A stretch of DNA of 60,308 nt from an uncultured Gammaproteobacteria bacterium (GCA_964566225.1 CAZMHV010000005.1:1-60308), one strand, 5' to 3'. Shown: positions 34,090-57,072, counted from the stretch's first letter. Program-made: numbers and translations. The notes: generated from the letters alone by a model not told the origin.

Positions 34090-34098
34090 AACGCGAGG

Positions 34099-34644
34099 CT
34101 ATTTTTTTTCTTTTATCAAATACATGGTAATACCAAGCAGTACAAAAGAGGTTAAAGACATAACCGGTATGGTAATATAGCCATAGTAGGCAAAGAGTTT
34201 TTCCGAACACGATACTAGCGCTCCCACAGAACAAGGAGTATAAAGGCTAATACCATTTTGCAATAAAATATGGTAAATAGCAAGAAAGACTCCTATGAGA
34301 GAGAGCAAAATACTATAATCTGCAATTTTTCTGTCTTTTTTTGTATAGGCCATGCCGAGGATGAATACCTGTGAAAATAAGAAAATTCGTTGATACCAAC
34401 ACATACTGCATGGTGGCAGGTGAAGAATTTCAGAATAAAAAAGACTTAATGCTGTAGAAACGATGGCAATAAGAAATCCAAGCAGAAGTCCATTTGTTAT
34501 GATAAGCGTTTTTATTTTTTCAAAAAAAAGAAATTTCTTTTTGGAAAAGAAAGAATATGAATAAGTGACAATAAAAAGTATGATACCGATATGGGATATC
34601 AAGGTTAGTATTGAAAGTATTGTATTAAGTAATTCAAGTGACAT
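34099..34644 (-). CDS. DsbB/BdbC-family disulfide bond formation protein
   Basis: PPCSMCWYQRIFLF (CxxC followed by WYQR), a second Cys pair CSVGALVSC, and 4 or more TM helices. Confidence 0.75.
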   Translation of the reverse strand: MSLELLNTILSILTLISHIGIILFIVTYSYSFFSKKKFLFFEKIKTLIITNGLLLGFLIAIVSTALSLFYSEILHLPPCSMCWYQRIFLFSQVFILGMAYTKKDRKIADYSILLSLIGVFLAIYHILLQNGISLYTPCSVGALVSCSEKLFAYYGYITIPVMSLTSFVLLGITMYLIKEKK

Positions 34645-39983: not shown

Positions 39984-41087
39984 TCACACATCCAAAAATT
40001 GTCGTAACTTTTTACGGATTCTTGAAATTTGAAGTTTAATGGCATTTTCACTTTTGTTTTTTTTGTCAGCAATTTCTTTCATGGCATAGCCTTGTTCATA
40101 GACCAGTGAAAGAATTTCTTTTTCTTCTTTTGACAAGGTTTCAATGCCTTCTTTGAGAGAGTAAATTTCAAGCGAATTCACAGGTACTTTGGTAGCTATG
40201 TCTTGCATGTGTTCGGTCGAAAGTGGCAGTACCTTGCGATAGTGATTGACCAAAATATTGTGCGCAATACGAAATAAGTAGGTTTGGTACGAAGCATTGG
40301 TTGGCACAAAAGTTCCTACATGTGAAAGTGCTTTGATAAAAGTTTCTTGTGTAAAATCTTCAGCAAGGTTGACCTCTTTGAGATGTGCCAAAAAGTACGA
40401 AAAAATTTTTTTGTTATACTTTGCATACAGAGCTTCAAACTCTTTGGTATTGTGTTGTGCATTCAAAATAAGGTTTTTATCATTTTCGCGTTCAATAAAA
40501 AGTTGTTTGGTGGGTTCTACAAAGTGTGTAGAAAAAATATCACTGAGTGATGCTTCGGTTTCTGAAAAATCCACATACTGACGTGTGAGCCAAAAAAATA
40601 TTTTTTCCAAGGACAAAAAACCACGTGTTTCTTGGAGGAGCAAAATCATTTCCAAATCAATTTCAAATTCTTTTTTTTCAGTTTCATTTTGAAGCAGGGG
40701 AGAGAGCGCAATAAAATGTGAAAGCAGTTTATTTTTAAAAATTGGAACAATATACGTGTCTGCACAAAAAGTTTCTCCTTGTTTATTTTGATTGTGAGCA
40801 TCACTCAAAAAAAATGTTTTTTCTTTTTGTATGGTATACCACATTTTTTTGTAAAACGAACCTGGCATGTGTCCACCCCACAAATCTCCAGGGCGCTTGC
40901 CTACAGACTCAGCCAAGGAAAACCCTGTTTTTTCTTCCGTGCCTTTGTTGGCATACAATATAACCGAAGAAGTACCAGTAATAAAAAATTGGCTTTGTAG
41001 GGCGTCAAATTTGTTTTTGAGTGCGTCTTCTTCGGGCATATTCAAAGGGGTATTGGTGAGTATAGCAGTGTTTGGTTGAGGTTTCAA
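39984..41087 (-). CDS. PAS-domain / ECF-type sigma-70 factor fusion
   Basis: The N-terminal half has ILYANKGTEEKTGFSLAESVGKRPGDLWGG (PAS-like). The C-terminal half has region 2 (DFTQETFIKAL, YLFRIAHNILVNHYRK) and region 4 (LSKEEKEILSLVYEQGYAMKEIADKKNKSENAIKLQISRIRKKL). Confidence 0.7.
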   Translation of the reverse strand: MKPQPNTAILTNTPLNMPEEDALKNKFDALQSQFFITGTSSVILYANKGTEEKTGFSLAESVGKRPGDLWGGHMPGSFYKKMWYTIQKEKTFFLSDAHNQNKQGETFCADTYIVPIFKNKLLSHFIALSPLLQNETEKKEFEIDLEMILLLQETRGFLSLEKIFFWLTRQYVDFSETEASLSDIFSTHFVEPTKQLFIERENDKNLILNAQHNTKEFEALYAKYNKKIFSYFLAHLKEVNLAEDFTQETFIKALSHVGTFVPTNASYQTYLFRIAHNILVNHYRKVLPLSTEHMQDIATKVPVNSLEIYSLKEGIETLSKEEKEILSLVYEQGYAMKEIADKKNKSENAIKLQISRIRKKLRQFLDV

Positions 41088-41096
41088 GGCGCATGT

Positions 41097-42620
41097 TTAA
41101 ACCATCTCCTTCCCCCGAAATTGCAAAGCCTCAGCCACATGGACGGTACCAATATCATCTTTTCCATCCAAATCAGCAATCGTCCTCGCCAATTTCAAAA
41201 TTCGATGAAAACTGCGTGCTGACAAATTTAAACGATTGGTAGCTTGCTTCATCACTTCCAAAGATTGTTCAGACAATTTACAAAACATTTTTATTTCTTT
41301 GGGCCTCATTTCACTATTGCTCAAACAAGTCGTGTTTTGAAGTCGCCACTGCTGTCGTTCGTATGCTGCTTGTACTCGTGCACGAATTATTTGCGAAGTT
41401 TCACCAACACCCGCATCAGTAAGTTTTTCAAAGGGCACACGAGGCACTTCTACCTGCAAGTCAATTCGATCAAGTATGGGACCACTTATTTTTTTCTGAT
41501 AATGAAAAATTGCAGCCGGGGAACAAATGCAAGATTTTTCTACGTCAGTGGCATATCCACAGGGGCAAGGGTTTTGACTGGCCACCAAAGTAAACCGTGC
41601 AGGAAAAGTAACCGTGCCCTGTGCACGAGAGATAGTGACAATCCCATCTTCAAGTGGCTGACGTAAACTTTCAAGAACAGTACGTGGAAACTCAGCAAAT
41701 TCATCGAGAAACAAAACTCCTCGGTGGGCCAGTGAAATTTCGCCAGGCCGTGGGAATTTTCCCCCTCCAATAAGAGAAACACCACTTGAAGTATGGTGGG
41801 GAGCACGAAAAGGTCTTTCTGTAATCAGTGGTTTGTTTCCACGCAGCATTCCGGCCACAGAATAAATTTTGGTTACTTCAATAGCTTCACTCAAAGAAAA
41901 TTTTGGTAAAATCGAAGGCAGTGTACGTGCAAGTAAAGTTTTTCCTGAACCTGGTGGACCAGAGAGTAAAATATTATGCGCGCCACTCGCTGCAATTTCC
42001 AATGCACGTTTTACAAATTCTTGTCCTTTGATATAGGCCATATCCATTTCACATGGGTGCTCTTCAAACCATTGCTCAAGCGAAGTCGTTTGAATTGGCT
42101 GCAAAGATTTTTTGTGTGTGATGTGCGCAATCATGTCTCCAAATGTTTCCACTGCATACACTTGAATTCCTTGTATAACACTGGCTTCGGCTGCATTCAC
42201 GGCAGGCACAAAGACACGTGTAAAGTGGTGTGCTTTGGCATACAATACGAGTGGTAAAATCCCATTGCTGTGACGCAAACTGCCGTCGAGTGCGAGTTCA
42301 CCCACAATTAAAGCATCAGACAAATCAATGGCCAGTCGCTCTGACGACAAAAACATTCCTACTGCCATGGGCAAATCATAGGCCGAGCCTTCTTTGCGTA
42401 CATCTGCAGGCGCCAAATTAATCACTACACGACTATTGGATGGAAATGTGAGGTTGGTGTTTTTCCAGGCAGTACGAATTCGTTCTTTGGCTTCTTGAAT
42501 TGCGGCATCAGGGAGTCCCACAATTTGATATCCTGGCCAACTGCCAGCAATATCCACTTCTGCGGTGATGGGGATACAATCAAGTCCAATGACTGCTGCT
42601 GAATTTATTTTGGTAAACAT
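41097..42620 (-). CDS. comM: YifB/ComM-family Mg-chelatase-like AAA+ ATPase
   Basis: N-terminal Lon-protease-like domain, Walker A GPPGSGKT, VLFLDEFAEF, and a C-terminal ChlI-like region; 507 aa. Confidence 0.85.
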   Translation of the reverse strand: MFTKINSAAVIGLDCIPITAEVDIAGSWPGYQIVGLPDAAIQEAKERIRTAWKNTNLTFPSNSRVVINLAPADVRKEGSAYDLPMAVGMFLSSERLAIDLSDALIVGELALDGSLRHSNGILPLVLYAKAHHFTRVFVPAVNAAEASVIQGIQVYAVETFGDMIAHITHKKSLQPIQTTSLEQWFEEHPCEMDMAYIKGQEFVKRALEIAASGAHNILLSGPPGSGKTLLARTLPSILPKFSLSEAIEVTKIYSVAGMLRGNKPLITERPFRAPHHTSSGVSLIGGGKFPRPGEISLAHRGVLFLDEFAEFPRTVLESLRQPLEDGIVTISRAQGTVTFPARFTLVASQNPCPCGYATDVEKSCICSPAAIFHYQKKISGPILDRIDLQVEVPRVPFEKLTDAGVGETSQIIRARVQAAYERQQWRLQNTTCLSNSEMRPKEIKMFCKLSEQSLEVMKQATNRLNLSARSFHRILKLARTIADLDGKDDIGTVHVAEALQFRGKEMV

Positions 42621-43236: not shown

Positions 43237-43265
43237 AGTATACCCCACCTTTATTTTTTTGTCAA
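43237..43265 (-). promoter_or_regulatory. promoter of the tRNA operon (native)
   Basis: On the - strand: TTGACA (comp 43260-43265), 17-nt spacer, TATACT (comp 43237-43242). Confidence 0.6.
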
Positions 43266-43291: not shown

Positions 43292-43330
43292 AAAAAACAA
43301 AATCCTGAGGTATGGCCTCAGGATTCAAAA
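43292..43330. terminator. bidirectional terminator at the distal end of the pilin array
   Basis: AATCCTGAGGtatggCCTCAGGATT: a 10-bp stem flanked by A- and T-runs. Confidence 0.75.
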
Positions 43331-43351: not shown

Positions 43352-43858
43352 TTATGGCTTATAACAGTTTCCATCAGCACCTCTTTGCCAGCCAAATTGA
43401 CATGGGCTATTTACCTTGTGTCGTTGGTCAGGGTTAGAAAAGTCTACATTGGTGTTTTTAATTTCTACATAGTTTCCTTGGTGTGCGGCATCCCCAGTAG
43501 CAAGTTTGGCAGCAAGGAGCGTAATACTATAAGCACTTAAAATAACTGCAATGCCAATAACTCCACGAACCAAGGTTTTTTTGCCTTCAGCAACTTTGTC
43601 TTCCTCACCACGTGCGGTCATAATAAGAAATCCCGCATACACCGTGTAGACCAAAAAAATAATAGCAAGGAATGAAAGAAATACTTTGATTCCACTTGCA
43701 ATAATAAGACGAGGGTCACGAGCTGCGGCATATCCGGCTCCACTTTCACCAGCTGTGGCTTGAAGTTGTGTGCCTACATCAATTGCAGACGCAGCTACCG
43801 GAAGAAACGTGAGACAACTAAGCAATATGCCAAAATATACTTTTTTCAGAGAATGCAT
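43352..43858 (-). CDS. TrbC/VirB2-type (T4SS-pilin-like) membrane protein, paralog 1 of 12
   Basis: Signal peptide MHSLKKVYFGILLSCLTFLPVAASA. Core FLVYTVYAGFLIMTARGEEDKVAEGKKTLVRGVIGIAVILSAYSIT. Short tail with 2 Cys. Confidence 0.7.
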   Translation of the reverse strand: MHSLKKVYFGILLSCLTFLPVAASAIDVGTQLQATAGESGAGYAAARDPRLIIASGIKVFLSFLAIIFLVYTVYAGFLIMTARGEEDKVAEGKKTLVRGVIGIAVILSAYSITLLAAKLATGDAAHQGNYVEIKNTNVDFSNPDQRHKVNSPCQFGWQRGADGNCYKP

Positions 43859-43876
43859 ACACCGTACAAACAAAAA

Positions 43877-44347
43877 TTAAAAAGCATTTTCAAGATCAGA
43901 CCAATTCATAGGTGGATTTTTTGGTTTGTCTACTTCACCACTCACTGACTGTGATACCGATTTACCAATAAAGGCTGTAATACTGTATGCTGCCAAAACA
44001 ATAATAAGTCCTATTACCGCTGCCCGAATTGTTTTTTGAGCTTTTTCTACTTTGGATTCATCACCAGCTGCTGTCAAAATATTGTATCCAGCATACACGG
44101 TAAGCACCAAAAATATGCTTCCGAGGAGTGTGAGAATGTCTTTAATTATGCCTGCAATAGCAATTCGTGGGTCAACTGCTTTGCCGTACTCTGCTGTCTT
44201 TGCTCCAGCTTCGTATTGACCTTTAATTTGGTCAGAAAGTGAACCTGCTGCGAGTGCTGGGACTCCAACAAAAGAACAGGTGAAAACAAGAGAAGCAATT
44301 GCCAGAGAAATTTTTTGAGAAAGTTTCATAGAGTTGTTTAGTGACAT
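43877..44347 (-). CDS. T4SS-pilin-like membrane protein, paralog 2
   Basis: Signal peptide (an alternative start MKLSQK at 44329 is possible). Core FLVLTVYAGYNILTAAGDESKVEKAQKTIRAAVIGLIIVLAAYSIT. Confidence 0.7.
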   Translation of the reverse strand: MSLNNSMKLSQKISLAIASLVFTCSFVGVPALAAGSLSDQIKGQYEAGAKTAEYGKAVDPRIAIAGIIKDILTLLGSIFLVLTVYAGYNILTAAGDESKVEKAQKTIRAAVIGLIIVLAAYSITAFIGKSVSQSVSGEVDKPKNPPMNWSDLENAF

Positions 44348-45093
44348 TGACCAGCTGGGACTACTTCAAATCGGTGGCCATAATCAACGTTAGCATTACA
44401 TCGGTTATCATTAAATTGACTACAGTAGTAGTTAAATCGTTGATCACAGCCTTCTTCTGTATCAACCTCTTCTTTGGTTTCAACACCATGATTTGTAAAA
44501 ATACAACAATTTACATTATCTGTGCCTCCGGTGCATTGGCCCGCTGGTACAATTTGAATACTACAATACTGTCCTTGGTGTACGCACTGTGCATTGGCCA
44601 TACACTCTTGTTCATTTTGGGTAACATTTTTAACACAATTTTGTCCACTATCGTCACAAATAGAACAGCAGTATTCATTTCCACCTAAGTTATTGGTATT
44701 TGTTTCGCCAGCAACTGTTTTTTCCACAATTTTTGGTACCACAAACGCAGTAATACTGTAGGCTCCTACCAAAATTACCATACCAATCACAGAGGATCGA
44801 ATAATTCCTTGGGCTTTTTCAATTTGGCTTTCTTCTCCCTGTGCCGTCATCCACAAATACCCGGCATATACCATGAGCACCAAAAAGATGACTCCCACAA
44901 AAGATAAAAGTGTCTTAATAACAGTACCTACCAGTTCTGCGAGTCCTGTGCCATTGGCATCAGTCGCGTATCCTGCAGTTTCAACCGCTGCCGTATCAAG
45001 GCCTTTTTTACCCAGGTCAAGCTTGGCAAGAGCTGGTGAAAGCGGGAGAAATAAAAGAGTACAAGCAAAAAGTGACAAAAGGTATTTTTTCAT
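44338..45093 (-). CDS. T4SS-pilin-like membrane protein, paralog 3, with a Cys-rich C-terminal module of about 120 aa
   Basis: Signal peptide MKKYLLSLFACTLLFLPLSPALA. Core FLVLMVYAGYLWMTAQGEESQIEKAQGIIRSSVIGMVILVGAYSIT. The tail has 15 Cys and VPAGQC twice. Confidence 0.7.
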   Translation of the reverse strand: MKKYLLSLFACTLLFLPLSPALAKLDLGKKGLDTAAVETAGYATDANGTGLAELVGTVIKTLLSFVGVIFLVLMVYAGYLWMTAQGEESQIEKAQGIIRSSVIGMVILVGAYSITAFVVPKIVEKTVAGETNTNNLGGNEYCCSICDDSGQNCVKNVTQNEQECMANAQCVHQGQYCSIQIVPAGQCTGGTDNVNCCIFTNHGVETKEEVDTEEGCDQRFNYYCSQFNDNRCNANVDYGHRFEVVPAGQCH

Positions 45094-45104
45094 AGCACAG
45101 TATA

Positions 45105-45479
45105 TTAGCCACCAAATTTAGTAATAACAAAGTTGGTAATAAAGTACGCAGCCAATACTACCCCCATACCAATCATAGTAGAAGAAATAATATTTTTGGC
45201 TTTTTCAATTTGGCTTTCTTCTCCACGCGCTGTCATCCACAGGTATCCAGCGTAGACCATAAGGACCAAAAAAATAAGTCCTACCAGGGTAAGTGCTGCC
45301 TGAATGCCGGTTCCAACCACAGTATTAATATCACCATTTCCTTCAGTTCCAGCTTTAGTCGCTGCTTTTTGGAGAGGACTATTGGCTCCCACCGCATTTT
45401 TGAGTCCTTGTGCCATGGCTACCGGAGCAAACAAAAATGAGTTCAAAACCAGAAATAAGTAAGAGGTCTTTTTGGTCAT
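45105..45479 (-). CDS. T4SS-pilin-like membrane protein, paralog 4 (minimal, 124 aa)
   Basis: Signal peptide, then core FLVLMVYAGYLWMTARGEESQIEKAKNIISSTMIGMGVVLAAYFIT. Confidence 0.75.
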   Translation of the reverse strand: MTKKTSYLFLVLNSFLFAPVAMAQGLKNAVGANSPLQKAATKAGTEGNGDINTVVGTGIQAALTLVGLIFLVLMVYAGYLWMTARGEESQIEKAKNIISSTMIGMGVVLAAYFITNFVITKFGG

Positions 45480-45512
45480 ACAAGAAAAAGTAAATACTCA
45501 AAAGTTTGAAAA

Positions 45513-46148
45513 TTATCTGAAGCCGTCTGCACGTCTTTGGTTACATTCTACCACGCCCATGCCTTCTGTCCAAATATAGTCATCGGCAGCGCAGTTTGCT
45601 GCTCCTAAAGCTTCTTTACAGCTTGCTTTACATGCGTTTTCTGTCATCATAAAAGCAGTCCAGGTTCCTGCTTCATTTACTTTAAATTCACAGCAACCTT
45701 CAGGTGTACCTGCAGGTTCATTGGATCCCCCCGTGTCACCAGCTCCTCCACTGGCCTGTGGTTGAATCAATCTTTGTCCTACAAAGTTAGTAATGGCATA
45801 TGAGCCCACTACCACAATAAGACCAATAATCGCAGCAATAATAGTTTCTTTGGCCTTTTCAATTTCTGTTTCATTGCCACGTGCTGTCATCCAGGTAAAT
45901 CCACCGTAGACCATGAGTACCAAAAAGGCAATACCAGTAATACGCAGAGCTCCTTGGATAAGTGTGCCTACTTGTGTGCCGAGGTCATCGGTGCTCACTC
46001 CTGTTTTGGGGGCAACCTCACGTGTGAGAATGTCTTCAGCATTTCCAATATTTTTTTTGGCCAAAATCGGACCAGCAAACAGTACTCCGGTCAAAAGAAA
46101 TCCCATGAAAAATGAGAGCAATCTTTTGTGTGACAAAGAAAATTTCAT
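45513..46148 (-). CDS. T4SS-pilin-like membrane protein, paralog 5, with a Cys-containing C-terminal module
   Basis: Core FLVLMVYGGFTWMTARGNETEIEKAKETIIAAIIGLIVVVGSYAIT. Tail GCCEFKVNEAG...CKASCKEALGAANCAADDY..VVECNQ. Confidence 0.7.
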   Translation of the reverse strand: MKFSLSHKRLLSFFMGFLLTGVLFAGPILAKKNIGNAEDILTREVAPKTGVSTDDLGTQVGTLIQGALRITGIAFLVLMVYGGFTWMTARGNETEIEKAKETIIAAIIGLIVVVGSYAITNFVGQRLIQPQASGGAGDTGGSNEPAGTPEGCCEFKVNEAGTWTAFMMTENACKASCKEALGAANCAADDYIWTEGMGVVECNQRRADGFR

Positions 46149-46178
46149 ATAAAAAATGAGACAAGATCAACAAAAAGA

Positions 46179-46742
46179 TTATTGTCCTGGGACAGCAAAT
46201 GGAAGATTTGGATCATTGTTGATTCTTGGTGGACAAGGTGAGACTCCCAAATTTGGAGTTCCGAGATCAGCTCCATCTTGTCCTCGTTGAACTTCACCTG
46301 GTGCAAATTGTTCTGGACCAGTGCCCTCACAAGGTGCCACATTACCACCTCCACCCACATCAGCTTTCGTCTCAACTCCGGCATTGGCAGATCGGAATAC
46401 AAATATAGTGAGTGAGTACGAAGCCAAGACAATGATAATACCAATAATTGCCGTAGTAATAGTATCTTTGGCTTTGTCTACTTGTCCACTATCACCATGC
46501 GCTGTCATCCACAAAAATCCTCCGTACACCATGAGGATAAAAAAGATTAGACCAATGAGTGTGAGTGCGGTAGAAATCACATTGGCAATCACGGTAGAAA
46601 CTTCGGTTTGTTTCAAATCTGTTTTGGCCGCAGTCTCATCGAGTCCATAGTATGGATCAAGTGCTTGTGTAGGCGTACTCAAACAAAACATCAGTGTAAG
46701 GGTGGTACAAAAGAAGAAAATTTTTTTTATAATTCCGTGCAT
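46179..46742 (-). CDS. T4SS-pilin-like membrane protein, paralog 6
   Basis: Core FFILMVYGGFLWMTAHGDSGQVDKAKDTITTAIIGIIIVLASYSLT, with a Gly/Pro-rich tail containing 2 Cys. Confidence 0.7.
   Translation of the reverse strand: MHGIIKKIFFFCTTLTLMFCLSTPTQALDPYYGLDETAAKTDLKQTEVSTVIANVISTALTLIGLIFFILMVYGGFLWMTAHGDSGQVDKAKDTITTAIIGIIIVLASYSLTIFVFRSANAGVETKADVGGGGNVAPCEGTGPEQFAPGEVQRGQDGADLGTPNLGVSPCPPRINNDPNLPFAVPGQ
46441..46547. repeat. 107-nt segment near-identical to 47038-47144 (core of paralogs 6 and 7)
   Basis: A 42-nt perfectly identical run (46458-46499 = 47055-47096), one mismatch, then 11 more identical nt. The flanking sequence diverges. Confidence 0.85.
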
Positions 46743-46766
46743 AGTTTTTTGGGAGTGCAGACAATG

Positions 46767-47336
46767 TTATTGTTGAGCTTGCTGCGCACAAGCAGGTGCT
46801 TGGTTATTGGTCAAAGAACACAGGTTTGCAATACATGCTGCCGGGTCATTGAATGAAAGTATACCTTGTGGACAAGCCTGAGCACTTTCTCCACACACAT
46901 ATCCTGGATCTTGCAAACTTGAGTCAAGACAGTAAGTTTTTGAGGCACCACCATTTGCTGTAGGTGTAGCTCCAGCTCCACTACTGGCACTAAAGACAAA
47001 GTTGGTAATTGCATACGAAGCTAACACAACAATGATACCAATAATGGCTGCCACAATAGTATCTTTGGCTTTGTCTACTTGTCCACTATCACCATGTGCT
47101 GTCATCCAGAGGAAGCCTCCATACACCATGAGGATAAAAAAGATAACGGCAATCATGGAGAGGGCGGTACCAATCACATTACCAATAAGGGTAGGGATAT
47201 CACTGGGGTAGCGCTGTGCAATACCAGAAGCATTGGCTGTGGCGGAGAGACCATAGTCATCAGCATGAGCGAGGGCAGGAACCAAAAAAACTCCCATGAG
47301 TGAGAGTACCACAAAAACTTTTTTGAAAATGGACAT
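46767..47336 (-). CDS. T4SS-pilin-like membrane protein, paralog 7, with a Cys-rich tail
   Basis: Start taken at MSIFKKVFVVLSLMGVFLVPALAHA. Core FFILMVYGGFLWMTAHGDSGQVDKAKDTIVAAIIGIIVVLASYAIT. Tail TYCLDSS..YVCGESAQACPQG..PAACIANLCS..APACAQ. Confidence 0.7.
   Translation of the reverse strand: MSIFKKVFVVLSLMGVFLVPALAHADDYGLSATANASGIAQRYPSDIPTLIGNVIGTALSMIAVIFFILMVYGGFLWMTAHGDSGQVDKAKDTIVAAIIGIIVVLASYAITNFVFSASSGAGATPTANGGASKTYCLDSSLQDPGYVCGESAQACPQGILSFNDPAACIANLCSLTNNQAPACAQQAQQ
47038..47144. repeat. 107-nt segment near-identical to 46441-46547
   Basis: See the partner repeat at 46441-46547. Confidence 0.85.
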
Positions 47337-47409
47337 AAGAGAACGATTCAATGAAGAATGGAAGGTGATGGAGCTGCGGGGCTTCATCACTGGACACTAT
47401 TCACTGATA

Positions 47410-47805
47410 CTATGGGTAAATGTTGATCACGTTTCCGGTAGCGGCACGATTGGTATTTTCAAGTACATAGGTTGTAATACTCCAGGCACTCAAGATAATC
47501 AACAAGCCAAGGACACAGGCTTTGATGGTTTTTTGTGCGCTTTCGATTTTGTCTTCAGATCCTCCTGATGTCATCCACATGTATCCAGCATACACAATAA
47601 GACTCACACAAATAATACCGAGCAGGCCAAGTACTACGTTAATAATCTGTACGGCAGTAGTACGAACGTCGTTTGAACCAAGGCCACTGGCAGCGCCAAG
47701 GCTTTGTCCTTGCACACTCAGTCCAATATCTTGTGCGTGCACTGGTGCAAAAAAAATGCCAAGTCCAATGAGTGTCAAAATAAAAAAGGGAAGAACCTTT
47801 TTCAT
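47410..47805 (-). CDS. T4SS-pilin-like membrane protein, paralog 8
   Basis: Start taken at MKKVLPFFILTLIGLGIFFAPVHA. Core VSLIVYAGYMWMTSGGSEDKIESAQKTIKACVLGLLIILSAWSIT. Confidence 0.7.
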   Translation of the reverse strand: MKKVLPFFILTLIGLGIFFAPVHAQDIGLSVQGQSLGAASGLGSNDVRTTAVQIINVVLGLLGIICVSLIVYAGYMWMTSGGSEDKIESAQKTIKACVLGLLIILSAWSITTYVLENTNRAATGNVINIYP

Positions 47806-47907
47806 AGAAAATTTTTTAAAGTAATTGATAAGAGATAAAATGACCAAGTTCAAATGACCAATGTGAGACGGGTTTACTCATTTGTCATTTTGGTTTTGTC
47901 ACTTTGA

Positions 47908-47949
47908 AAAGAACAAAAGGGTAGGATACTCACGTGGGGCATCCTACCC
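47908..47949 (-). terminator. internal terminator inside the pilin array (after paralog 9)
   Basis: GGGTAGGAT (47919-47927) pairs with ATCCTACCC (47941-47949). On the - strand the stem is followed by TTTTGTTCTTTTC. Confidence 0.6.
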
Positions 47950-47964
47950 CTATTGGATGTTCTT

Positions 47965-48456
47965 TTATTGGTTAGCTGCGTCTGCACCAGCATCGGCTGG
48001 GTTCCAGTCAGCATTTTGACCCGCTACATTGGTCGCACTTGCCAAGTTTTGAAGTACAAATTTGGCAATTGCCCATGCACTGAGGATAATAGCCATACCA
48101 ACGACGCCTGCAAAGATAAGTTTGCGAGCTTCGGCGATTTTATCTTCACTGCCACCTGCAGTCATCCATTTGAAGCCACCGGCCAAAACGATAACTACGG
48201 CAATAATACCAAGTAAACTGAGTGATACGTTGATAAGACGTACAACGGTTGTTTGTAAACTGTTGTTGCCTAATGCAATACCACTTCCAGCGATTGCTGG
48301 ATCTCCTTCGATTTCTTTTGTTCCAAAAACGTCATTTCCAACAATGTTGTTTTGCGCACTTGCAAAGTTTGGTGCGAGCACCAAGCCGAGCATAAGAGCA
48401 GAGGTTAACCCTACTGCAATTTTGTTTTTTGTAATTTGAAAATTCACATGTCTCAC
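47965..48456 (-). CDS. T4SS-pilin-like membrane protein, paralog 9
   Basis: Core AVVIVLAGGFKWMTAGGSEDKIAEARKLIFAGVVGMAIILSAWAIA. Confidence 0.7.
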   Translation of the reverse strand: MRHVNFQITKNKIAVGLTSALMLGLVLAPNFASAQNNIVGNDVFGTKEIEGDPAIAGSGIALGNNSLQTTVVRLINVSLSLLGIIAVVIVLAGGFKWMTAGGSEDKIAEARKLIFAGVVGMAIILSAWAIAKFVLQNLASATNVAGQNADWNPADAGADAANQ

Positions 48457-48481
48457 CCCCTTTCAGGTTAAGATTAAAAGT

Positions 48482-49192
48482 TTATTGTCTATTGAACTGT
48501 AAACAGGTTACTAACTCTTGTGCACATTCTTCTACCAAGGGACTATCTTCAGCGAGTCCATTTTGACACAGTGCATGAAATTGTCGACATACCTGATCTC
48601 TGTTTTGTGCGTTGACACAGTCACTCATCGGTGCACCAGGAACATCACCATTATTTGCTGGGAGAACAAATACCACATAGGTACAATCTTCTCGAGCATC
48701 ACAGGCATTGCGTGTAAGCTCACTACATGAGTCTGATTCAGGTTGAACTTGTGGTGTACCTGGAGTAATTTGTCCTGCTGGAGCATTGCCTCCACTGTCT
48801 GAAGAAAGTGTCTTTCCAGTAATTCCTTCAATAACTGTGGTTAGTATACCATATGCTCCAAAAATGATAAAGAGTCCCATCACTGCATACAACATAGTCT
48901 TGGTTCCTTGCTGTACTTTGTCAGAGTTTCCAGCCGAAGTGAGCCACAAATATCCACCAAATACAAATACTGCCAAGGTAATTGATCCCAAAAATCCAAG
49001 GGTAATTTGAACAGCGTTTCCAAAGATCACTCGAGTATCTACCAGTCCTCTCGGATTTTTTTCACTTCCACCAATAGGATTAATAAGTTCTACGGGTGCA
49101 TCTGCTTGTTTGCCAAGGCCTTGAGCCTGTACTGGAGAACCTGGCAACATGAGAGCACAGAGAAAAAAAATGATAAAAAAATATTTTCGCAT
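48482..49192 (-). CDS. T4SS-pilin-like membrane protein, paralog 10, with a Cys-rich C-terminal module
   Basis: Signal peptide MRKYFFIIFFLCALMLPGSPVQA. Core LAVFVFGGYLWLTSAGNSDKVQQGTKTMLYAVMGLFIIFGAYGIL. The tail has 9 Cys (SDSCSELTRNACDAREDC...VTCLQF). Confidence 0.65.
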   Translation of the reverse strand: MRKYFFIIFFLCALMLPGSPVQAQGLGKQADAPVELINPIGGSEKNPRGLVDTRVIFGNAVQITLGFLGSITLAVFVFGGYLWLTSAGNSDKVQQGTKTMLYAVMGLFIIFGAYGILTTVIEGITGKTLSSDSGGNAPAGQITPGTPQVQPESDSCSELTRNACDAREDCTYVVFVLPANNGDVPGAPMSDCVNAQNRDQVCRQFHALCQNGLAEDSPLVEECAQELVTCLQFNRQ

Positions 49193-49240
49193 ACAAAAAG
49201 TAATTCAATACGGTGAAAGTTGTTTCACAGCGCGAATGGG

Positions 49241-50458
49241 TTATTGTTTTTGATTGGTAAGGTCTGTATCTAAATTGCCAACGGCTCTGTACAGGTCACT
49301 GACTTGGAGTGCATCAAGTATAAAGTCTATGATGAGGTACGCACCAAAGGCAATAATAATACCCACAATAGCTGCCACCAGTACATCGCGTCCTTTTTTG
49401 ACTTTTTCTGCACTGCCCATAGAGAGTACCATAGTAAAGCCTCCATATACAAACATGACAAAGGCAAAGGTACCTATAATGGCAAACATGGATTTACCTA
49501 AGTTGATAAACAAGATCAGCAAGTCGTTAATATTGCGACATCCTTCAAAACTAAAAGCACAATCAGGGAGTGGACCATTATAGCCCTTGGGTTTTTGGTA
49601 GTGTGGGTCATTGGCATGGAGTTCTGCCAGGGTAGGAGCCCGGGGAGTAGAACTGGCAGTGACTGTTGAATTGAGAATACAAACATTGAGAGCATCAATA
49701 CACCTTGCTGGAAGACTTGGGTTTGCTTTCATTTTTTCCAGCAAAGATGCTGGGGTATCTGCAGAAGGGTTATAACTCTCTGGAATACACTTTGACATTT
49801 CTCTTTTGAAGTTGATAAGACAAGCTTCTTTGGCTGCTTTTTCACTTTCATTGGCTTGTTGAACCCCCAAAATGTAAACAAACTTGTTACTATTTTCATT
49901 GGACATGTGAATCTGGTAGCGAAGTGGTTGTCTGTTGTTGTACTTGGCATCTTCATAGGGTTGAAAATTTGCAGGTCTATTACAACCAGCACCACCACCA
50001 CAGGTGTTTTTGAGACAGACTTTGTCAAATCCAAGTTGCATTTGAGCTACGGTAAATTGTCCTTGATCTTTTGGATACCAGTTTCCAACACGATATGGCG
50101 CATCCATATGAGAGTCAGCTGGGTCACAATAAATACCTTCTTTGACTGCTGTATATCCAGACCAGTTACGTGGTATGATTTGTATAACTCGGCCTCCTCC
50201 TATGTCAATATTTTGACTCAATTCGTTAAACCCAATAGTATATTGACCTTCTGGTATAGAAATACAAGCAGGTTGTCCTCCTACTGCAGAGGCACTGTTA
50301 TCACTCACCAACACTTTAATAAATTTTTTTCCAATTTCTGGAATCTTCCCATCACAAATATTTTCTCCTTCAGCATATACCTGAAGAGGGGACAGAAAAA
50401 AAACTGACAAAAAAAGCAATCCAGAAATAAGAGAAAACGTTTTGTTTTCAAACTTCAT
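49241..50458 (-). CDS. large secreted Cys-rich protein ending in a pilin-type two-helix core (paralog 11, reversed domain order)
   Basis: Signal peptide, then a Cys-rich ectodomain of about 310 aa, then FAFVMFVYGGFTMVLSMGSAEKVKKGRDVLVAAIVGIIIAFGAYLII at the C-terminus. Confidence 0.6.
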   Translation of the reverse strand: MKFENKTFSLISGLLFLSVFFLSPLQVYAEGENICDGKIPEIGKKFIKVLVSDNSASAVGGQPACISIPEGQYTIGFNELSQNIDIGGGRVIQIIPRNWSGYTAVKEGIYCDPADSHMDAPYRVGNWYPKDQGQFTVAQMQLGFDKVCLKNTCGGGAGCNRPANFQPYEDAKYNNRQPLRYQIHMSNENSNKFVYILGVQQANESEKAAKEACLINFKREMSKCIPESYNPSADTPASLLEKMKANPSLPARCIDALNVCILNSTVTASSTPRAPTLAELHANDPHYQKPKGYNGPLPDCAFSFEGCRNINDLLILFINLGKSMFAIIGTFAFVMFVYGGFTMVLSMGSAEKVKKGRDVLVAAIVGIIIAFGAYLIIDFILDALQVSDLYRAVGNLDTDLTNQKQ

Positions 50459-50505
50459 ACGAACAAGAAAAAACTAAAATGGTTTGGGTGAGCGAGTTAT
50501 TTGTA

Positions 50506-51900
50506 TTACATGGTAAGTTGCACGGTTCGGGCCGCACGCATAATAATATTGAGATCGCGTTCGTCAGCAGCTTCACCTACTTCACCTTCTTTGTAGGGCA
50601 CAATATACGCATCCATCATATCTTGCAGACCTGCCTTGGCAGTCTCCCATTCACGGCCGTGATACCAGTTTTTGGCAGTAAGGGACTGGTTGGCAAAGGT
50701 TGCCAGGATTGGATCTTGTTTTTGAATTCCAACATGTTCACGCAGTGGTGAAGGAACTTTGGCAGTGACATTGTATTGTTTGATATTGTTTGGGAGGGTA
50801 ATAAACCGGATAAAGTCCCAGGCATAGTTTTTGTTTTTGGACTTTTTGACCACAGATTCAATCCAGTAGTTGGCAATGTTGACAGGTTTGTTTGGGTTGA
50901 GTTGTGGGAGTGGAATAGAAACCAGTGTCATTTGTGGATTGCGAGTTTTGATACGAGCATAGTCGTAGGCATAACCAAAGTAAAATACAGACTTGTTGCG
51001 CACAAATGACTCAAAAGCTGTGCCTAAATTTTTGTTCCAAGAGTAGACGTCTTTGTCTTCTCGTGCAAAGTTGCTATAAAAGTTGAGTGCCTTACTAGTT
51101 GGATGGTTGCGGAGCGTGTTTTTATCAAGTCCTTGTGAAAACACAACACTTCCTCCACGAGTCATGTCAAATCCATTTTGCATGACCAGATATGCCAAAA
51201 TATCTGCACCATTATCAATGCTTTTGCCAGCTCCAAGGGCAATGCCAGATTGGATAATTTTGTTATCAGCATCATATTTGGTTGCTTCTTTGATGGCTTT
51301 TACCAGTTCATCCCAGGTTGTTGGAGCTGTGGCAATACCGGCTTGGTCAAGTAAGGTTTTGTTGTAGTATATTGCCAACGTATCATACGAGAGTGGGAGT
51401 CCAAATACTTGAGTACCTTGAATAACGTCCTCAGCAACACCACTTACATAATTGTCACGAATAGATTGCAGGGTAGGGAGTTGTTTGTCTTCTGTAATAA
51501 TAACGGTTTCTTTGGCATACTGTCCTTGTACTTCAGAGTGAGCCACGGTTACTTTGGGAGGCATGGGGGACAAACGACTGTCGTATTTTTTGAGAGTACG
51601 AATATGCGTAGAAATAATATCGGGTCCTACGTCGTCTGCGAGGGCGTTGGTAAAAAGTTTGTCATACTCTTCGTATCGAATTTGACGTATATTGATACTT
51701 ACTTGTGGAAACATTTTTTGGTATTCAAAAGCAAGGCGTCTGAGTTCACTGACGTCTCCATATACGGTCCAATAGTTCAGTTTGACTGGACGAATCGCTG
51801 CTTGTTCTGCTGCGGTTGGGGCTTTGCAACCAAAACCCGTAGAAACAAAAAGACTGGCCAAAACCACCAGGGAGAGAGATTTTTTGAAAAGTGGTGACAT
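50506..51900 (-). CDS. extracellular solute-binding lipoprotein (ABC family-1, sugar-type), with no permease or ATPase partner nearby
   Basis: Lipobox LFVSTGFGC. KLNYWTVYGD, FGLPLSYDTLAIYYNKTLLDQAGI..PTTWDELV. Confidence 0.75.
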   Translation of the reverse strand: MSPLFKKSLSLVVLASLFVSTGFGCKAPTAAEQAAIRPVKLNYWTVYGDVSELRRLAFEYQKMFPQVSINIRQIRYEEYDKLFTNALADDVGPDIISTHIRTLKKYDSRLSPMPPKVTVAHSEVQGQYAKETVIITEDKQLPTLQSIRDNYVSGVAEDVIQGTQVFGLPLSYDTLAIYYNKTLLDQAGIATAPTTWDELVKAIKEATKYDADNKIIQSGIALGAGKSIDNGADILAYLVMQNGFDMTRGGSVVFSQGLDKNTLRNHPTSKALNFYSNFAREDKDVYSWNKNLGTAFESFVRNKSVFYFGYAYDYARIKTRNPQMTLVSIPLPQLNPNKPVNIANYWIESVVKKSKNKNYAWDFIRFITLPNNIKQYNVTAKVPSPLREHVGIQKQDPILATFANQSLTAKNWYHGREWETAKAGLQDMMDAYIVPYKEGEVGEAADERDLNIIMRAARTVQLTM

Positions 51901-51905
51901 ACTGT

Positions 51906-52559
51906 TTAAGCAAAAGCGTCGAAGATGAATTTGACAAGGGAATAACTACTGAGTATGACAATAACACCAAGCGATGCCCAGAGCATCATTTCGCGTGCTT
52001 TTCCCTCTCGGTCACTGTTTCCTGCAGCAGTCATCCACATGAGCCCCGCAAATACCATAATAGCAAAGGCCAGTGAGCCCATTATTTTCATAACTGTTGA
52101 AATTACGTTTCCAATCGCTTGTTTGAGTGTAAGACCTTGAAATTGGTTGAGCTCTGCGGCTGCTCCAGAGGGAATTTCATATCCTACTTCGTTATTTGTC
52201 TGTACTGATCCTTTATCTACAACATTTTCCATACATTGGCTATAAAAAGCCTGCGCATCAATTTCACATTTGGATCGTTTGGTGGCTTTTTCATTTTCTG
52301 GAAGATTTGTGTCTACAGATTCTTTACAGGCCTGCTGTCTCTGCGCTTTTTGAAGGTCACAGTATTCTTTGGTTCTTTCTTCACTCACCGGTTCTTGAAA
52401 GTGGTTTGTTGGTGCCACACTTTGGTTTTCTTCTGGATTTGATGACTCAGGAAGACTCATGATATCTGGATCAAGGGCTGCTTGTCCAAAAACAAAAGAT
52501 GGTCTCGCCAAAAAAAGAAGAGAAAGAACAAGAAAAAATGAAAAAGATTTTTGGCGCAT
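51906..52559 (-). CDS. secreted protein ending in a pilin-type two-helix core (paralog 12, reversed domain order)
   Basis: Signal peptide MRQKSFSFFLVLSLLFLARPSFVFG, an acidic ectodomain of about 130 aa with 4 Cys, then FAIMVFAGLMWMTAAGNSDREGKAREMMLWASLGVIVILSSYSLV. Confidence 0.6.
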   Translation of the reverse strand: MRQKSFSFFLVLSLLFLARPSFVFGQAALDPDIMSLPESSNPEENQSVAPTNHFQEPVSEERTKEYCDLQKAQRQQACKESVDTNLPENEKATKRSKCEIDAQAFYSQCMENVVDKGSVQTNNEVGYEIPSGAAAELNQFQGLTLKQAIGNVISTVMKIMGSLAFAIMVFAGLMWMTAAGNSDREGKAREMMLWASLGVIVILSSYSLVKFIFDAFA

Positions 52560-52561: not shown

Positions 52562-53443
52562 TTATGAAAAATACTCAGTGAGTTCTGCACGCATACTTGG
52601 GTCTTTCATGGCAAAGTGCAGCGCGGCCTTGAGAAGTGCCAGTTTGTCTCCGGTATCAAAGTAAATTCCTTCGTATTCGTAGGCGTAAAATGGTTTCTTT
52701 TTGCATAGGCCATTGGCAGCGTCAGCCACCCAAATTTCTCCGTCTTTACCTTCGCGTTGTTTTTCAAGGTATGCCCAAATATCTTTGGTAAAAATATAGC
52801 GCATACCACCAACAATAAGACCATGTGGCGATACTTGATGAAGGGGAGGTTTTTCACGAAATTCACTCACGCGGTAAGTTTGATTTTTCAAAAAATTTCC
52901 ATACACATTGCCGTATTTTTTGGACATGACTTCTTTGTCTGTAATTTTTTGGACACCAATAACCGATGATTTGTACTTGGTAAATACTTTCATGAGTTGT
53001 TTGATAACTGGTGTTTTTGCGTCGATAATACTATCACCATCAGAGAAGGCAAAAGGTTCATCTCCAATAAACTCTCGTGCACAGAGGAGGGCATGTCCGT
53101 TGCCAAGGGGCGCGGCCTGACGTGTATAAAAAAATCTGACTTTTTGTGAGAGTTCAATGAGCGGTGCCAAGCGGTCAAGCTTGCCTTTTTCGTCAAGGAA
53201 GTTTTCCAGGTCTCTATCTCGATCAAAGTGATCTTCAATAGGACGTTTTTGAGAACTGGTGACAAAAATAATTTCGGTAATACCACTTTGTACCATTTCT
53301 TCTACAATGTATTGAACCACAGGTTTATCGAGTACCGGGAGCATTTCTTTGGGCATGGCTTTGGTAGCAGGGAGGAAGCGTGTCCCCATGCCAGCAACGA
53401 CAATAACTCCTTTTTTTACTTTGGTATTTTTGGAAGAAAACAT
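52562..53443 (-). CDS. galU: UTP--glucose-1-phosphate uridylyltransferase
   Basis: Start at MFSSKNTKVKKGVIVVAGMGTRFLPATKAMPKEMLPVLDKPVVQYIVEE. Its stop lies 2 nt before paralog 12. Confidence 0.85.
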   Translation of the reverse strand: MFSSKNTKVKKGVIVVAGMGTRFLPATKAMPKEMLPVLDKPVVQYIVEEMVQSGITEIIFVTSSQKRPIEDHFDRDRDLENFLDEKGKLDRLAPLIELSQKVRFFYTRQAAPLGNGHALLCAREFIGDEPFAFSDGDSIIDAKTPVIKQLMKVFTKYKSSVIGVQKITDKEVMSKKYGNVYGNFLKNQTYRVSEFREKPPLHQVSPHGLIVGGMRYIFTKDIWAYLEKQREGKDGEIWVADAANGLCKKKPFYAYEYEGIYFDTGDKLALLKAALHFAMKDPSMRAELTEYFS

Positions 53444-53500
53444 AGATGAACAATAATGACAATAGTATATCATATTTTTTCAAAAAGTAACAAAGTTGAA

Positions 53501-53534
53501 AAATAAAAACTCCCCCAAGAGGAGGAGTTTTGTT
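53501..53534 (-). terminator. terminator after rpsR
   Basis: On the - strand: AACTCCtcctcttgggGGAGTT followed by TTTATTTTT. Confidence 0.55.
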
Positions 53535-55017: not shown

Positions 55018-55150
55018 GGGGGAATCTGTGGTATAATTTGCCTATCATAATAGAGATAAATACGAGATCATTGAGAAAGTAAAATGATACTAAAAAAGTA
55101 TATATTTCTTAAAAATTTTTGAATTTTAGGTTTTTTGGCATAGCTTGTTT

Positions 55151-56185
55151 ATGAAAATTTTAATTTTGTTTGTTTCTTTTGTCTTGCTCTTGCCAGTTCC
55201 TCTTGAGGCTGCCATGACTGGAGGGAATTTTGAAATTTATGCAGATACTTTTTCGGTTGTTCAAGATAATTTAAGTACTACGGGTGGAGATTTTACACTT
55301 ACCAATAGTGGTGGGGAAGCCTCTGGAGTCCTGGGTAGGACGGCAACCGGTACTATTTACAATCCACTCATTGGAGGGATTTTGAACGGGGGTCAAATAG
55401 TTTTGTCTGATGGTGCAACGGTTACTACCTTTACATTTCGAAATAGAGCTGGAGCGGCAACCGGTAATATTGAAAGTGGAACGGTTACTATTGATACTGG
55501 TGGGGGAGGTGGCGGTGTGGTTGGAACCATGACCGATCGTATTGCGCAGGCTATCAATCATGCAAATGCGCGGTTAGAAATTGATGCGGTGAGTGATGGA
55601 GTAAATACCGTCACCTTGGTGAATACTCGTACTAGTGGAACTGATGGGAATGTAACGATAACGGAAACAGTTGGTGATGCAAGTTTTGTTGTCACCGGAA
55701 TGTCTGGTGGGGGAAATATAAGTAGTGGTGTGGTACTTTCTGGTGGATTTCAAGCCATGGAACGTGCTTCTTTGAGCATGTCTTTGAGCACAAATACTCT
55801 CGGTCTTGGAACTTTGTCGCTCAGCAGTGTAAGCTCTGCGAGTTTAGATATAAATGTTACCACTGACTCTGTGACTGGTTATGCTGTGACTCTGACTGAA
55901 GATGGGAACCTTCGTAAAGGTGCAGGAGGAGTCAACGATGAAATTGAAGATGTAAGTGACGGATCTGTGACTGCAGGTTCTGAAGAATATGGTTTGTTGA
56001 CTACCGGGGTTGCTGGGTTGCTAGCGGTAGATACTGCAATATCTGGGAATCTTTCTGTTGTATCGTACAATACAAGCATTACAAATCAGATTACAACGTT
56101 TACCTTTCATGCTGCTATAGGCAATTCCAGTCGAGCGGGAAGTTATTCACATACGGTGACACTAAGTGCCACTGCCAATCCATAA
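55151..56185 (+). CDS. secreted Gly/Thr/Ser-rich surface protein; possibly a TasA/WxL-like fibre or surface-complex subunit
   Basis: Signal peptide MKILILFVSFVLLLPVPLEA. The mature N-terminus AMTGGNFEIYADTFS recalls the GGxFAxFxD start of SipW-type (TasA/CalY) proteins. The C-terminus SRAGSYSHTVTLSATANP recalls the end of WxL domains. Both resemblances are weak. Confidence 0.55.
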   Translation: MKILILFVSFVLLLPVPLEAAMTGGNFEIYADTFSVVQDNLSTTGGDFTLTNSGGEASGVLGRTATGTIYNPLIGGILNGGQIVLSDGATVTTFTFRNRAGAATGNIESGTVTIDTGGGGGGVVGTMTDRIAQAINHANARLEIDAVSDGVNTVTLVNTRTSGTDGNVTITETVGDASFVVTGMSGGGNISSGVVLSGGFQAMERASLSMSLSTNTLGLGTLSLSSVSSASLDINVTTDSVTGYAVTLTEDGNLRKGAGGVNDEIEDVSDGSVTAGSEEYGLLTTGVAGLLAVDTAISGNLSVVSYNTSITNQITTFTFHAAIGNSSRAGSYSHTVTLSATANP

Positions 56186-56192
56186 TATTTTC

Positions 56193-57071: not shown

Positions 57072-57072
57072 T

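Follow-up and report, generated by a model that had tools for sequence, protein, structure and literature searches.

Tandem arrays of VirB2-like pilin genes have been described in Patescibacteria of the candidate phyla radiation (CPR) in connection with type IV secretion systems (T4SS). In a survey of 3,035 Patescibacteria genomes with PF04956, PF18895 and CONJScan, VirB2-like pilins were found in 1,948 VirB4-positive assemblies, near virB4 in 1,135 of them, and arrays of 2-11 genes with a mean within-array identity of 25% were reported in 383 assemblies, with Microgenomatia and Saccharimonadia as the main classes in which they abound (Quinonero-Coronel et al., 2025; PMC12102498). The survey likened these arrays to those of Bartonella and Anaplasma and suggested that they are an adaptation to different host strains (PMC12102498). 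The T4SS cluster of Southlakia epibionticum, which carries a six-gene pilin array, was found to be essential by transposon sequencing (Wang et al., 2023; PMC10633639; also PMC12857230), and a 2025 review speculated that the T4SS of Patescibacteria, devoid of a relaxase, is a pilus-like conduit for uptake from the host (PMC12857230). Here we report an array of this kind at positions 43352-52559 of a 60,308-nucleotide stretch of DNA (GCA_964566225.1, CAZMHV010000005.1; hereafter the window), which is one entire contig of 60.3 kb; P2 of the array is recorded on a contig of precisely 60308 bp. An exact look-up of the last protein on the contig gave no record, and one at the other end lengthened the sequence by a mere 190 nt or so. 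An earlier reading of this DNA (hereafter the sequence-only reading) held the biology of such arrays to be essentially uncharacterised, which is overstated given the 383 assemblies with arrays and the essential array of Southlakia (PMC12102498, PMC10633639, PMC12857230).

The locus is an array in the published sense (at least two VirB2-like genes in tandem or split by one non-pilin gene, with low paralog identity; PMC12102498), and it shares with the Patescibacteria arrays already described the PF18895 family, a monoderm CPR host, a chromosomal location and the lack of a relaxase (PMC12102498, PMC10633639). It holds 12 pilin genes, and its relatives 11-16, against a reported maximum of 11 in the Patescibacteria survey. 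What distinguishes it further from the published arrays is a strict positional orthology across an order, an embedded solute-binding protein (SBP), an upstream galU, and long N- and C-terminal ectodomains. Eleven ancestral pilin types are positional orthologs in fixed order across an order-level lineage, and the SBP and galU are part of the conserved unit.

On the minus strand of the interval, 13 consecutive open reading frames (ORFs) were found, 12 of them pilin-like (P1-P12, in transcription order) and one encoding the SBP (Table 1). The 12 same-strand genes with a signal peptide and a conserved two-helix core that the sequence-only reading described are borne out by ORF calls, hydropathy and alignment; the thirteenth gene, the most conserved non-pilin member of the locus, was overlooked in it. 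Profile matches place all 12 proteins in the VirB2-like T4SS_pilin family. PF18895 (cut-off 26.6 bits) matches every paralog, with E from 1.5e-10 to 1e-4; eight score above the cut-off (P4-P9, P11 and P12, 28.3-41.4 bits), and P1, P2, P3 and P10 lie 0.3-3.9 bits under it (22.7-26.3 bits), yet at E<=1e-4. The best pilin-profile match among the paralogs is P5, which also scores 38.0 bits against NCBIfam NF045849, the Mbov_0395 pilin-like conjugal transfer protein of the Mycoplasma integrative and conjugative element (ICE); P9 (29.1) and P12 (23.2) follow, and none reaches the cut-off of 40 bits.

The pilins share one build, in which a Sec signal peptide and a short N-region precede a membrane hairpin of helix-loop-helix form; in some of them an extracellular tail follows. 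In all 12, hydropathy reveals a hydrophobic N-terminal segment that closes with an AxA-type site for signal peptidase and is followed by two more hydrophobic helices, and the 12-paralog alignment gives a common core of about 73 residues with the approximate consensus IFLVLMVYAGFLWMTAxGxExKVxKAxxTIxAAVIGxIIxLxAYSIT, from which P2, P11 and P12 depart somewhat. Mean paralog identity is 22.5% over the full length and 36% in the core. The C-tails of P3, P6, P7, P8, P10 and P12 measure 47-128 aa and are mostly Cys-rich, and P4, P5, P9 and P11 have a short tail or none. The range given in the sequence-only reading, from no tail to Cys-rich modules of about 120 aa, is borne out: P9 (its paralog 4, counted from the low coordinate) is tail-less, and the tail of P10 is made of two modules that open with CC and close with VPAGQC, with 14 Cys in all. 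A homology search with this tail alone gave no detectable homolog, and no domain was recognized by Pfam in the tails and N-terminal domains.

Structure prediction agrees with this build. In the AlphaFold2 model of P9 (81-sequence alignment; predicted local distance difference test score, pLDDT, 75.5), the signal peptide is helical, residues 35-43 form another short helix and 51-85/88-122 make up a long hairpin; the predicted hairpin is compatible with VirB2/TraA-type pilins. In the model of P2 (pLDDT 77.6), a confidently modelled beta-rich and helical N-domain precedes a hairpin at 310-345/350-383; Foldseek against the PDB revealed no structural neighbour of P2, with nothing under E 0.01 and a TM score of about 0.1.

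Relatives of the locus were collected in two scans, with pilins detected by a hidden Markov model (HMM) of the core made from the 12 window paralogs. A genome scan with one genome per species and the SBP as seed gave 28 loci, nearly all titled Magasanikbacteria, and a metagenome scan seeded with a seven-sequence SBP alignment gave 80 (a 42-sequence alignment was too diverse as a seed). P9 alone has 261 homologs, nearly all matching PF18895 and mostly named Magasanikbacteria, and the contigs that carry them read (rpsF-ssb-rpsR)-galU-pilin-SBP-pilin x10-12. Over both scans the order galU, pilin, SBP and 10-15 further pilins recurs in about 110 loci (28 species-level genome and 80 metagenome loci) and is seen in every uncut locus, galU directly preceding the array in all of them. 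Among the uncut loci of this lineage, 11 pilins is the modal array size (20 loci) in a range of 11-16, with 12 pilins in 10 loci, 13 in six, 14 in four, and 15 and 16 in one each. A second, distant group from the metagenomes (L103, L105-L116) has the order galU-SBP-pilin x8-9 with no pilin between galU and SBP, its SBP being 38-42% and its galU-like protein 42-45% identical; this variant layout indicates that the link between SBP and pilins reaches beyond one lineage and predates the Magasanikbacteria-type arrangement.

The most telling property of these arrays is their collinearity. When each pilin of a locus is assigned to its best window paralog, the assignments follow the order P1, P2, P3, P4, P5, P6/7, P8, P9, P10, P11, P12, with order violations in three of 254 adjacent pairs (29 loci) against about 124 expected by shuffling; none of 1000 shuffles gave fewer than 107. 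Between P9 and its orthologs the identity is 60-71%, compared with a core identity of at most 62% to any paralog. Differences in array size are made by local duplications, which yielded three copies of P4, two to three of P6, and two each of P2 and P10. P6 and P7 are a recent lineage-specific duplicate, because their cores are 74% identical (the highest value among neighbours) and both map to one gene of L002; next in core identity are P9-P10 (62%), P4-P5 (55%) and P8-P9 (55%), and such a peak of similarity between adjacent genes would be expected if the array arose by ancient tandem duplication. The sequence-only reading had suggested a modular surface-display or adhesin repertoire, or a non-canonical filament; the array is no free repertoire but consists of ancient collinear positional orthologs at about 110 loci. 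That every type has been retained in collinear order favours subunits with non-redundant roles over display variants that could replace one another.

The cores are far more constrained than the N- and C-terminal ectodomains. Compared with L002, the closest relative (galU 84%), the cores are 77% identical without gaps, whereas the N-terminal parts and the C-tails, the latter with indels, each reach 35%; compared with L005 (galU 72%), the values are 57% for cores, 29% for N-terminal parts and 19% for C-tails, with 40% of the tail residues gapped. Among P10 orthologs the tail varies from none to a 128-aa double module. Lability is thus confined to the tails and the gene set is stable; the contrast between a conserved core and a labile exterior, drawn in the sequence-only reading from the paralogs of one array, holds in the comparison across related genomes that it had proposed as a check.

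The embedded SBP is an orphan. Its score of 68.5 bits passes the Pfam cut-offs of 26 and 27, its closest solved relatives in the PDB are sugar SBPs (E 2e-16 or weaker), and no NCBIfam equivalog model came near its cut-off. A hydrophobic leader and a G-[FLIV]-G-C lipobox-like motif are kept in every ortholog whose N-terminus lies inside the fetched sequence. No ABC (ATP-binding cassette) permease or ATPase was found beside it, neither on the contig nor in the inspected gene lists of related loci. Present as one copy per array, its orthologs are 46-70% identical, above the pilin tails, and it adjoins pilin arrays in the approximately 110 loci; the SBP subfamily as a whole has 583 cluster representatives at E<=1e-30, with genomic context examined for a minority. 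We regard the SBP as an integral accessory of the array and infer a role as adhesin, sensor or cargo receptor.

Together these genes form a single chromosomal transcription unit, consisting of galU, P1, the sugar-type SBP lipoprotein and P2-P12, with terminators at both ends and an attenuator-like hairpin after P4 (Table 1). The galU-like protein scores 283 bits against TIGR01099, below the cut-off of 327. Its profile alignment begins at ORF residue 19-21, so that translation probably begins at the Met near 53443, which would put the promoter-like site upstream of the true start. The 2-nt gap between the galU stop and the P1 start, the internal terminator and the closing terminator beside the tRNA operon, all named in the sequence-only reading, were recovered. 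Array genes are spaced by 2-48 nt, P10 and P11 overlap by 10 nt, and no switchable element was seen. A simple scan detected a hairpin 3' of the P4 ortholog in 13 of 25 loci, about nine of which were judged convincing.

Table 1. Features of the galU-pilin unit in the window, in order of transcription (T4SS_pilin, PF18895; TrbC, PF04956).
Feature	Position	Strand	Remarks
Terminator-like hairpin 3' of rpsR	53506..53531	-	11-bp stem, 5 G-C pairs, then T-run; upstream edge of the unit
Promoter-like site before galU	53464..53493	-	TTGTTA, 18 nt, TG-TATACT
galU-like UTP-glucose-1-phosphate uridylyltransferase	52562..53473	-	First gene of the unit; Pfam NTP_transferase 5e-27; NCBIfam TIGR01099 galU 2e-84
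P1	51906..52559	-	217 aa; PF18895 26.3 bits, E 7.7e-6; ~120-aa N-terminal extension (4 Cys) ahead of core
SBP, orphan solute-binding lipoprotein	50506..51900	-	464 aa; P1/P2 interval; SBP_bac_1/SBP_bac_8, ~1e-18
P2	49241..50458	-	405 aa; PF18895 24.3 bits, E 3.4e-5; ~290-aa N-terminal ectodomain; 12 Cys in whole protein
P3	48482..49192	-	236 aa; PF18895 25.6 bits; ~110-aa C-tail; 9 Cys in whole protein
P4	47965..48456	-	163 aa; PF18895 30.7 bits, TrbC 17.2 bits; short tail, 0 Cys; last before internal hairpin
Internal stem-loop and T-run (terminator or attenuator)	~47908..47951	-	P4/P5 interval; dG -29.8 kcal/mol, z -2.9
P5	47410..47853	-	147-aa ORF, probable start at MKKVLPFF Met; PF18895 41.4 bits, TrbC 23.7 bits
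P6	46767..47390	-	207 aa; PF18895 35.0 bits; Cys-containing C-tail; 6 Cys in whole protein
P7	46179..46742	-	187 aa; PF18895 36.3 bits; lineage-specific P6 duplicate
P8	45513..46148	-	211 aa; PF18895 35.6 bits; C-tail begins CC; 6 Cys in whole protein
P9	45105..45479	-	124 aa, core only; PF18895 35.0 bits
P10	44338..45093	-	251 aa; PF18895 22.7 bits, E 1e-4; 128-aa C-tail
P11	43877..44347	-	156 aa; PF18895 31.2 bits
P12	43352..43873	-	173 aa; PF18895 28.3 bits; 4 Cys in whole protein
Intrinsic-terminator-like hairpin closing the operon	43300..43326	-	11-bp stem and T-run

Given these observations, we favour, with slightly more confidence than doubt, the reading that a T4SS encoded at a distance builds a filament or conduit for host contact from a fixed set of non-redundant pilin subunits, with the SBP as an accessory. 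The pilins would be exported via Sec and their signal peptides cleaved, and the hairpins would collect as a membrane pool from which a distant VirB4/TrsD-type T4SS would extract and polymerise them into a pilus-like filament or conduit at the host-cell contact. With both pilin termini on the outside of the cell, the N- and C-terminal domains would decorate the exterior, and the Cys-rich exported domains may gain disulfides and act as outward, lineage-specific modules of host contact. The fixed complement of eleven types argues for a division of labour, possibly between one or a few major (bulk) subunits, for which P4, P5 and P9, all of them tail-less, are candidates, and others that are minor or form the tip or base. 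The SBP lipoprotein would then be a glycan-binding accessory, whether as adhesin, sensor or cargo receptor.

Several points weigh against this explanation. To our knowledge, no filament of such proteins has ever been seen in Patescibacteria, and we know of nothing about T4SS pili that would predict an embedded SBP. The ectodomains of 110-290 aa on P2, P3 and P10 far exceed canonical VirB2/TraA pilins, and packing them in a helical pilus may be hard. The assignment to TrbC/VirB2 and T4SS pilins made in the sequence-only reading stands for PF18895 but not at the cut-off of PF04956 (27.9 bits), which matches seven of the 12 paralogs at E<=1 and at best P5 (23.7 bits, E 5.8e-5). Foldseek with the P9 model gave zero matches in the PDB, a bare helical hairpin being a poor query, and the 12-paralog profile found no solved pilin among PDB sequences, the only match being a spurious one to a G-protein-coupled receptor (E 0.27). 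Finally, VirB4, VirD4, VirB6/TrbL, relaxase and T2SSE had no Pfam match among plausible ORFs of at least 150 aa on the contig, and we therefore infer dependence on a T4SS in the source organism from relatives only.

Relatives point to such machinery, and in the source organism it is probably encoded elsewhere in the genome. The array-bearing genomes found in Table S1 of the survey (GW2011_GWC2_37_14, RIFCSPHIGHO2_02_FULL_48_18 and CG10_..._47_10) are all three VirB4-positive (PMC12102498). In Table S3 the first of these (GCA_000990355.1) has TrsD and VirB4 as genes 801-802 and another VirB4 as gene 246, and the P4 and P6 orthologs, genes 461 and 463, are flagged there as not near VirB4, virB4/trsD being more than 300 genes away. 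T4SS loci of the class ABY1 have been reported to adjoin comF, recG and radA (PMC12102498). The statement that no T4SS machinery is in sight thus holds for the contig but does not mean that a T4SS is lacking, given the three VirB4-positive relatives with the array.

The capacity for extracytoplasmic disulfides is indicated by genes on the same contig. An envelope redox and metal cluster at 28215-34644 (minus strand) includes a copper-type P-type ATPase of 1096 aa that carries HMA domains, a protein in which DsbD_2 is joined to HMA and cupredoxin domains, an ORF of 151 aa without matches, and DsbB. With DsbB and a DsbD-like protein the organism can form such disulfides, which fits the Cys-rich exported domains.

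A more far-reaching version, which we consider rather improbable, has the array form a heteropolymeric T4SS-type filament or conduit of fixed composition with the SBP as its built-in ligand receptor, capturing or taking up host glycans or glycolipids and not exporting DNA or effectors. If true, this would be the first pilus of the T4SS type to combine a defined architecture of multiple subunits with an integral component for solute binding, and it would offer a concrete handle on why the T4SS of Patescibacteria is essential.

An observation on lipids may be added here. Conjugative pili contain stoichiometric lipid. In L005 (12032-13132, minus strand) and 15 other loci, a glycosyltransferase resembling monogalactosyldiacylglycerol (MGDG) synthase, which would use a UDP-sugar, lies convergent directly after the array, so that in these 16 of 58 loci the array sits between galU and a glycolipid synthase. 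The flanking by both genes is suggestive of a lipid link, and plain synteny is possible; a functional tie to glycolipid synthesis was set aside, since the gene occurs in 16 of 58 loci only and is absent here, in keeping with sub-clade synteny.

It can also be asked whether the array depends on a T4SS at all. Its distance from any T4SS gene on the contig, and in a relative of more than 300 genes from virB4, would suit 12 separate adhesins or surface proteins that carry different ectodomains on a two-helix core serving as a mere membrane anchor, and so would the large, variable, Cys-rich ectodomains and the nearby DsbB and DsbD-like genes, suited to exported disulfide-rich domains. We nevertheless regard this T4SS-independent display, which corresponds to the surface-display repertoire of the sequence-only reading, as unlikely, if still to be taken seriously. 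P4, P5, P9 and P11 are conserved positions with little or no ectodomain to display, and the hairpin is the most constrained part of the proteins, with position-specific signatures and no indels, where a mere anchor should tolerate more change. Ectodomains are gained and lost among orthologs while the core persists, and elsewhere the family is tied to VirB4 loci, in 1135 of 1948 assemblies (PMC12102498).

The collinearity described above bears most directly on the idea of a variation repertoire, in which each paralog would be an alternative major pilin, deployed singly or in shifting mixtures for evading defences or matching host strains. Such a model was put forward earlier for the arrays of Bartonella Trw and Anaplasma VirB2, and the 2025 survey proposed it for Patescibacteria as well (PMC12102498). 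The low paralog identity, near the published mean, the fast evolution of the tails and the local duplications of P4, P6, P2 and P10 would be expected under it. The retention of eleven ancestral types in order in essentially every locus, however, is the strongest single discriminator here and stands against it, as do orthologs that are closer than paralogs, core identities of no more than 74% between neighbours, which give no hint of homogenisation through gene conversion, and the layout as one operon with short gaps and no switchable element. For this locus we therefore find a variation repertoire quite improbable.

The orphan sugar-type SBP, conserved inside the array in about 110 loci and present in a second, distant lineage, with no ABC permease or ATPase nearby, raises yet another possibility, namely that eleven or more hairpins (at least 22 transmembrane helices) form a hetero-oligomeric channel to which the SBP feeds sugar or glycolipid, making the locus an importer and not a pilus. 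A fixed subunit set would suit such a channel, and these organisms rely on imported metabolites (PMC12857230). On the other hand, nothing that could energise transport is present, and the proteins match profiles of pilins, their matches to DctQ, FixQ and permeases being weak and all far under the cut-offs. Two-helix subunits occur in no known SBP-dependent transporter; we judge SBP-dependent uptake very unlikely.

That the array is an ordinary conjugation locus with its machinery just beyond the window, as its pilin family, related to conjugative pilins, might suggest, is scarcely credible. The window is already the whole contig, and the loci fetched from the genome collection have no VirB4, type IV coupling protein (T4CP) or relaxase in the 10 kb around the array (large Walker-A ORFs there were ComM-like or PilB-type only), which speaks against the complete conjugative T4SS immediately outside that the sequence-only reading had left open. 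An ordinary conjugative element is rejected because the chromosomal housekeeping context (rpsF-ssb-rpsR, tRNAs, comM/yifB, nrdD) is conserved in relatives.

A type IV pilus locus was likewise rejected. No prepilin motif (of the G-F-T/S-L-x-E type) was found in any frame of the window, nor was a PilB-type ATPase, the sole Walker-A ORF of at least 300 aa being a YifB/ComM-like ATPase (41097-42620). Type IV pilus genes do stand beside the array in some relatives. In L018, and also in L008 and L023, a PilB-type ATPase (T2SSE and MshEN, E 2e-132; L018 11-1807, minus strand) lies near the VirB2-like array, and a gene (L018 3978-5744, plus strand) for a 588-aa protein with an N_methyl prepilin motif and CarboxypepD_reg is found in roughly 4.5 kb of inserted DNA that separates rpsR from galU and is missing from the window.

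Divergent from rpsF, three secreted proteins are encoded on the plus strand, of 346 aa (55145-56185), 301 aa (56166-57071) and 779 aa with CarboxypepD_reg repeats (57037-59376), and the trio is kept beside the array in L002, L005, L022, L025, L029 and L033. The first matches NCBIfam CPR_Pam_pilin_C very weakly (E 0.007; 16.5 bits, where the cut-off is 55) and the second has weak matches to pilus-chaperone and choice-of-anchor models. They may be distant kin of the donor-strand-exchange Pam pilus (bioRxiv 10.64898/2026.03.03.709456), or the matches may mean nothing.

Housekeeping genes flank the unit on both sides: upstream lie rpsF-ssb-rpsR, and on the downstream side are tRNAs, yifB, nrdD and the gene for a PAS-sigma factor. 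Beyond the closing terminator lie a promoter-like site at 43237-43265 (11 of 12 matches) and three tRNA genes (tRNA-Gly/Met/Gly). Two genes downstream of the array, past the tRNAs, a 367-aa ORF (39984-41087, minus strand) is an apparent fusion of an N-terminal PAS domain to sigma-70 regions 2 and 4, an unusual architecture for a sigma factor of the extracytoplasmic function (ECF) type. At the start of the contig, G+C islands of 62-72% occupy 600-2200 in a sequence otherwise of about 40% G+C, and the same stretch is present in a separate Logan assembly (L001). It gave no match in Pfam, PHROGs or Rfam; ORF 1258-2208 (minus strand, 316 aa) within it, which has no tandem repeats, resembles a genuine globular protein and may be a gene from a high-G+C organism.

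The source organism is a Magasanikbacteria-type (class ABY1) Patescibacterium of the CPR. Eleven relatives with a locus of the Magasanikbacteria type (L009, L013, L014, L016-L018, L020, L024, L025, L031 and L032) come from metagenome-assembled genome (MAG) records titled 'uncultured Gammaproteobacteria bacterium', and the submission pipeline has almost certainly mislabelled them.

In the one Patescibacterium that has been genetically tested, both the T4SS and the pilin array belonging to it are essential; the locus sharpens the question of what they do and overturns nothing. It does shift the hypotheses, toward a heteromeric architecture of major and minor subunits rather than antigenic variation, and toward a glycan or glycolipid link. 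It also bears on how such arrays are counted. The array of GW2011_GWC2_37_14 (L028) has 11 members, KKQ27547 and KKQ27549-KKQ27558, and Table S3 of the survey records two of the 11 as VirB2, KKQ27551, the P4 ortholog, and KKQ27553 (PMC12102498). HMM surveys with coverage cut-offs seem to under-count such arrays, to judge from this one shared genome, and the published range of 2-11 genes and the class distribution are therefore probably lower bounds.

Compared with other known systems, the locus combines familiar parts in a different arrangement. The Southlakia array lies inside a virB4/virB6/virB3 T4SS cluster, whereas the array here is detached from virB4, and no gene of such a cluster was found on the contig or, in the fetched genome-collection loci, at less than 10 kb. 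The tandem trwL/VirB2 genes of Bartonella Trw and the virB2 arrays of Anaplasma and Ehrlichia are likewise tandem amplifications of VirB2-type genes, in T4SS co-opted for host interaction and not for DNA transfer (PMC12102498). Those bacteria, however, are diderm pathogens of eukaryotic cells whose copies lie in or near the T4SS operon, are short and without large ectodomains, and are read as variants, in contrast to the ancient, non-interchangeable positional orthologs found here. With the canonical TrbC/VirB2/TraA pilins of F and T pili (PF04956) the array shares the signal peptide, the two-helix hydrophobic hairpin and the short charged loop; the canonical pilins, unlike those of the array, are encoded by one gene per system, measure about 70-100 aa when mature and have no appended domains. 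The Mbov_0395 family of the Mycoplasma ICE also comes from a monoderm, in an MPF-FATA-type context, and the P5 core aligns over 67 of the 80 positions of its profile, yet that gene is single and resides on a mobile element with full conjugation machinery. Streptococcus sanguinis PilB, a modular type IV pilin (PMC8179133), embodies the same concept of a conserved polymerisation module with an appended functional or adhesive domain, but with an unrelated pilin fold and another assembly machine (N_methyl prepilin, PilB ATPase). The Magasanikbacteria-type operon, with its galU, embedded SBP, eleven or more positional orthologs and long ectodomains apart from virB4, appears to be unreported in the literature searched. 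The VirB2 array of Patescibacteria as such has already been published, and the present locus is a richer example of it that leaves its basic classification unchanged.

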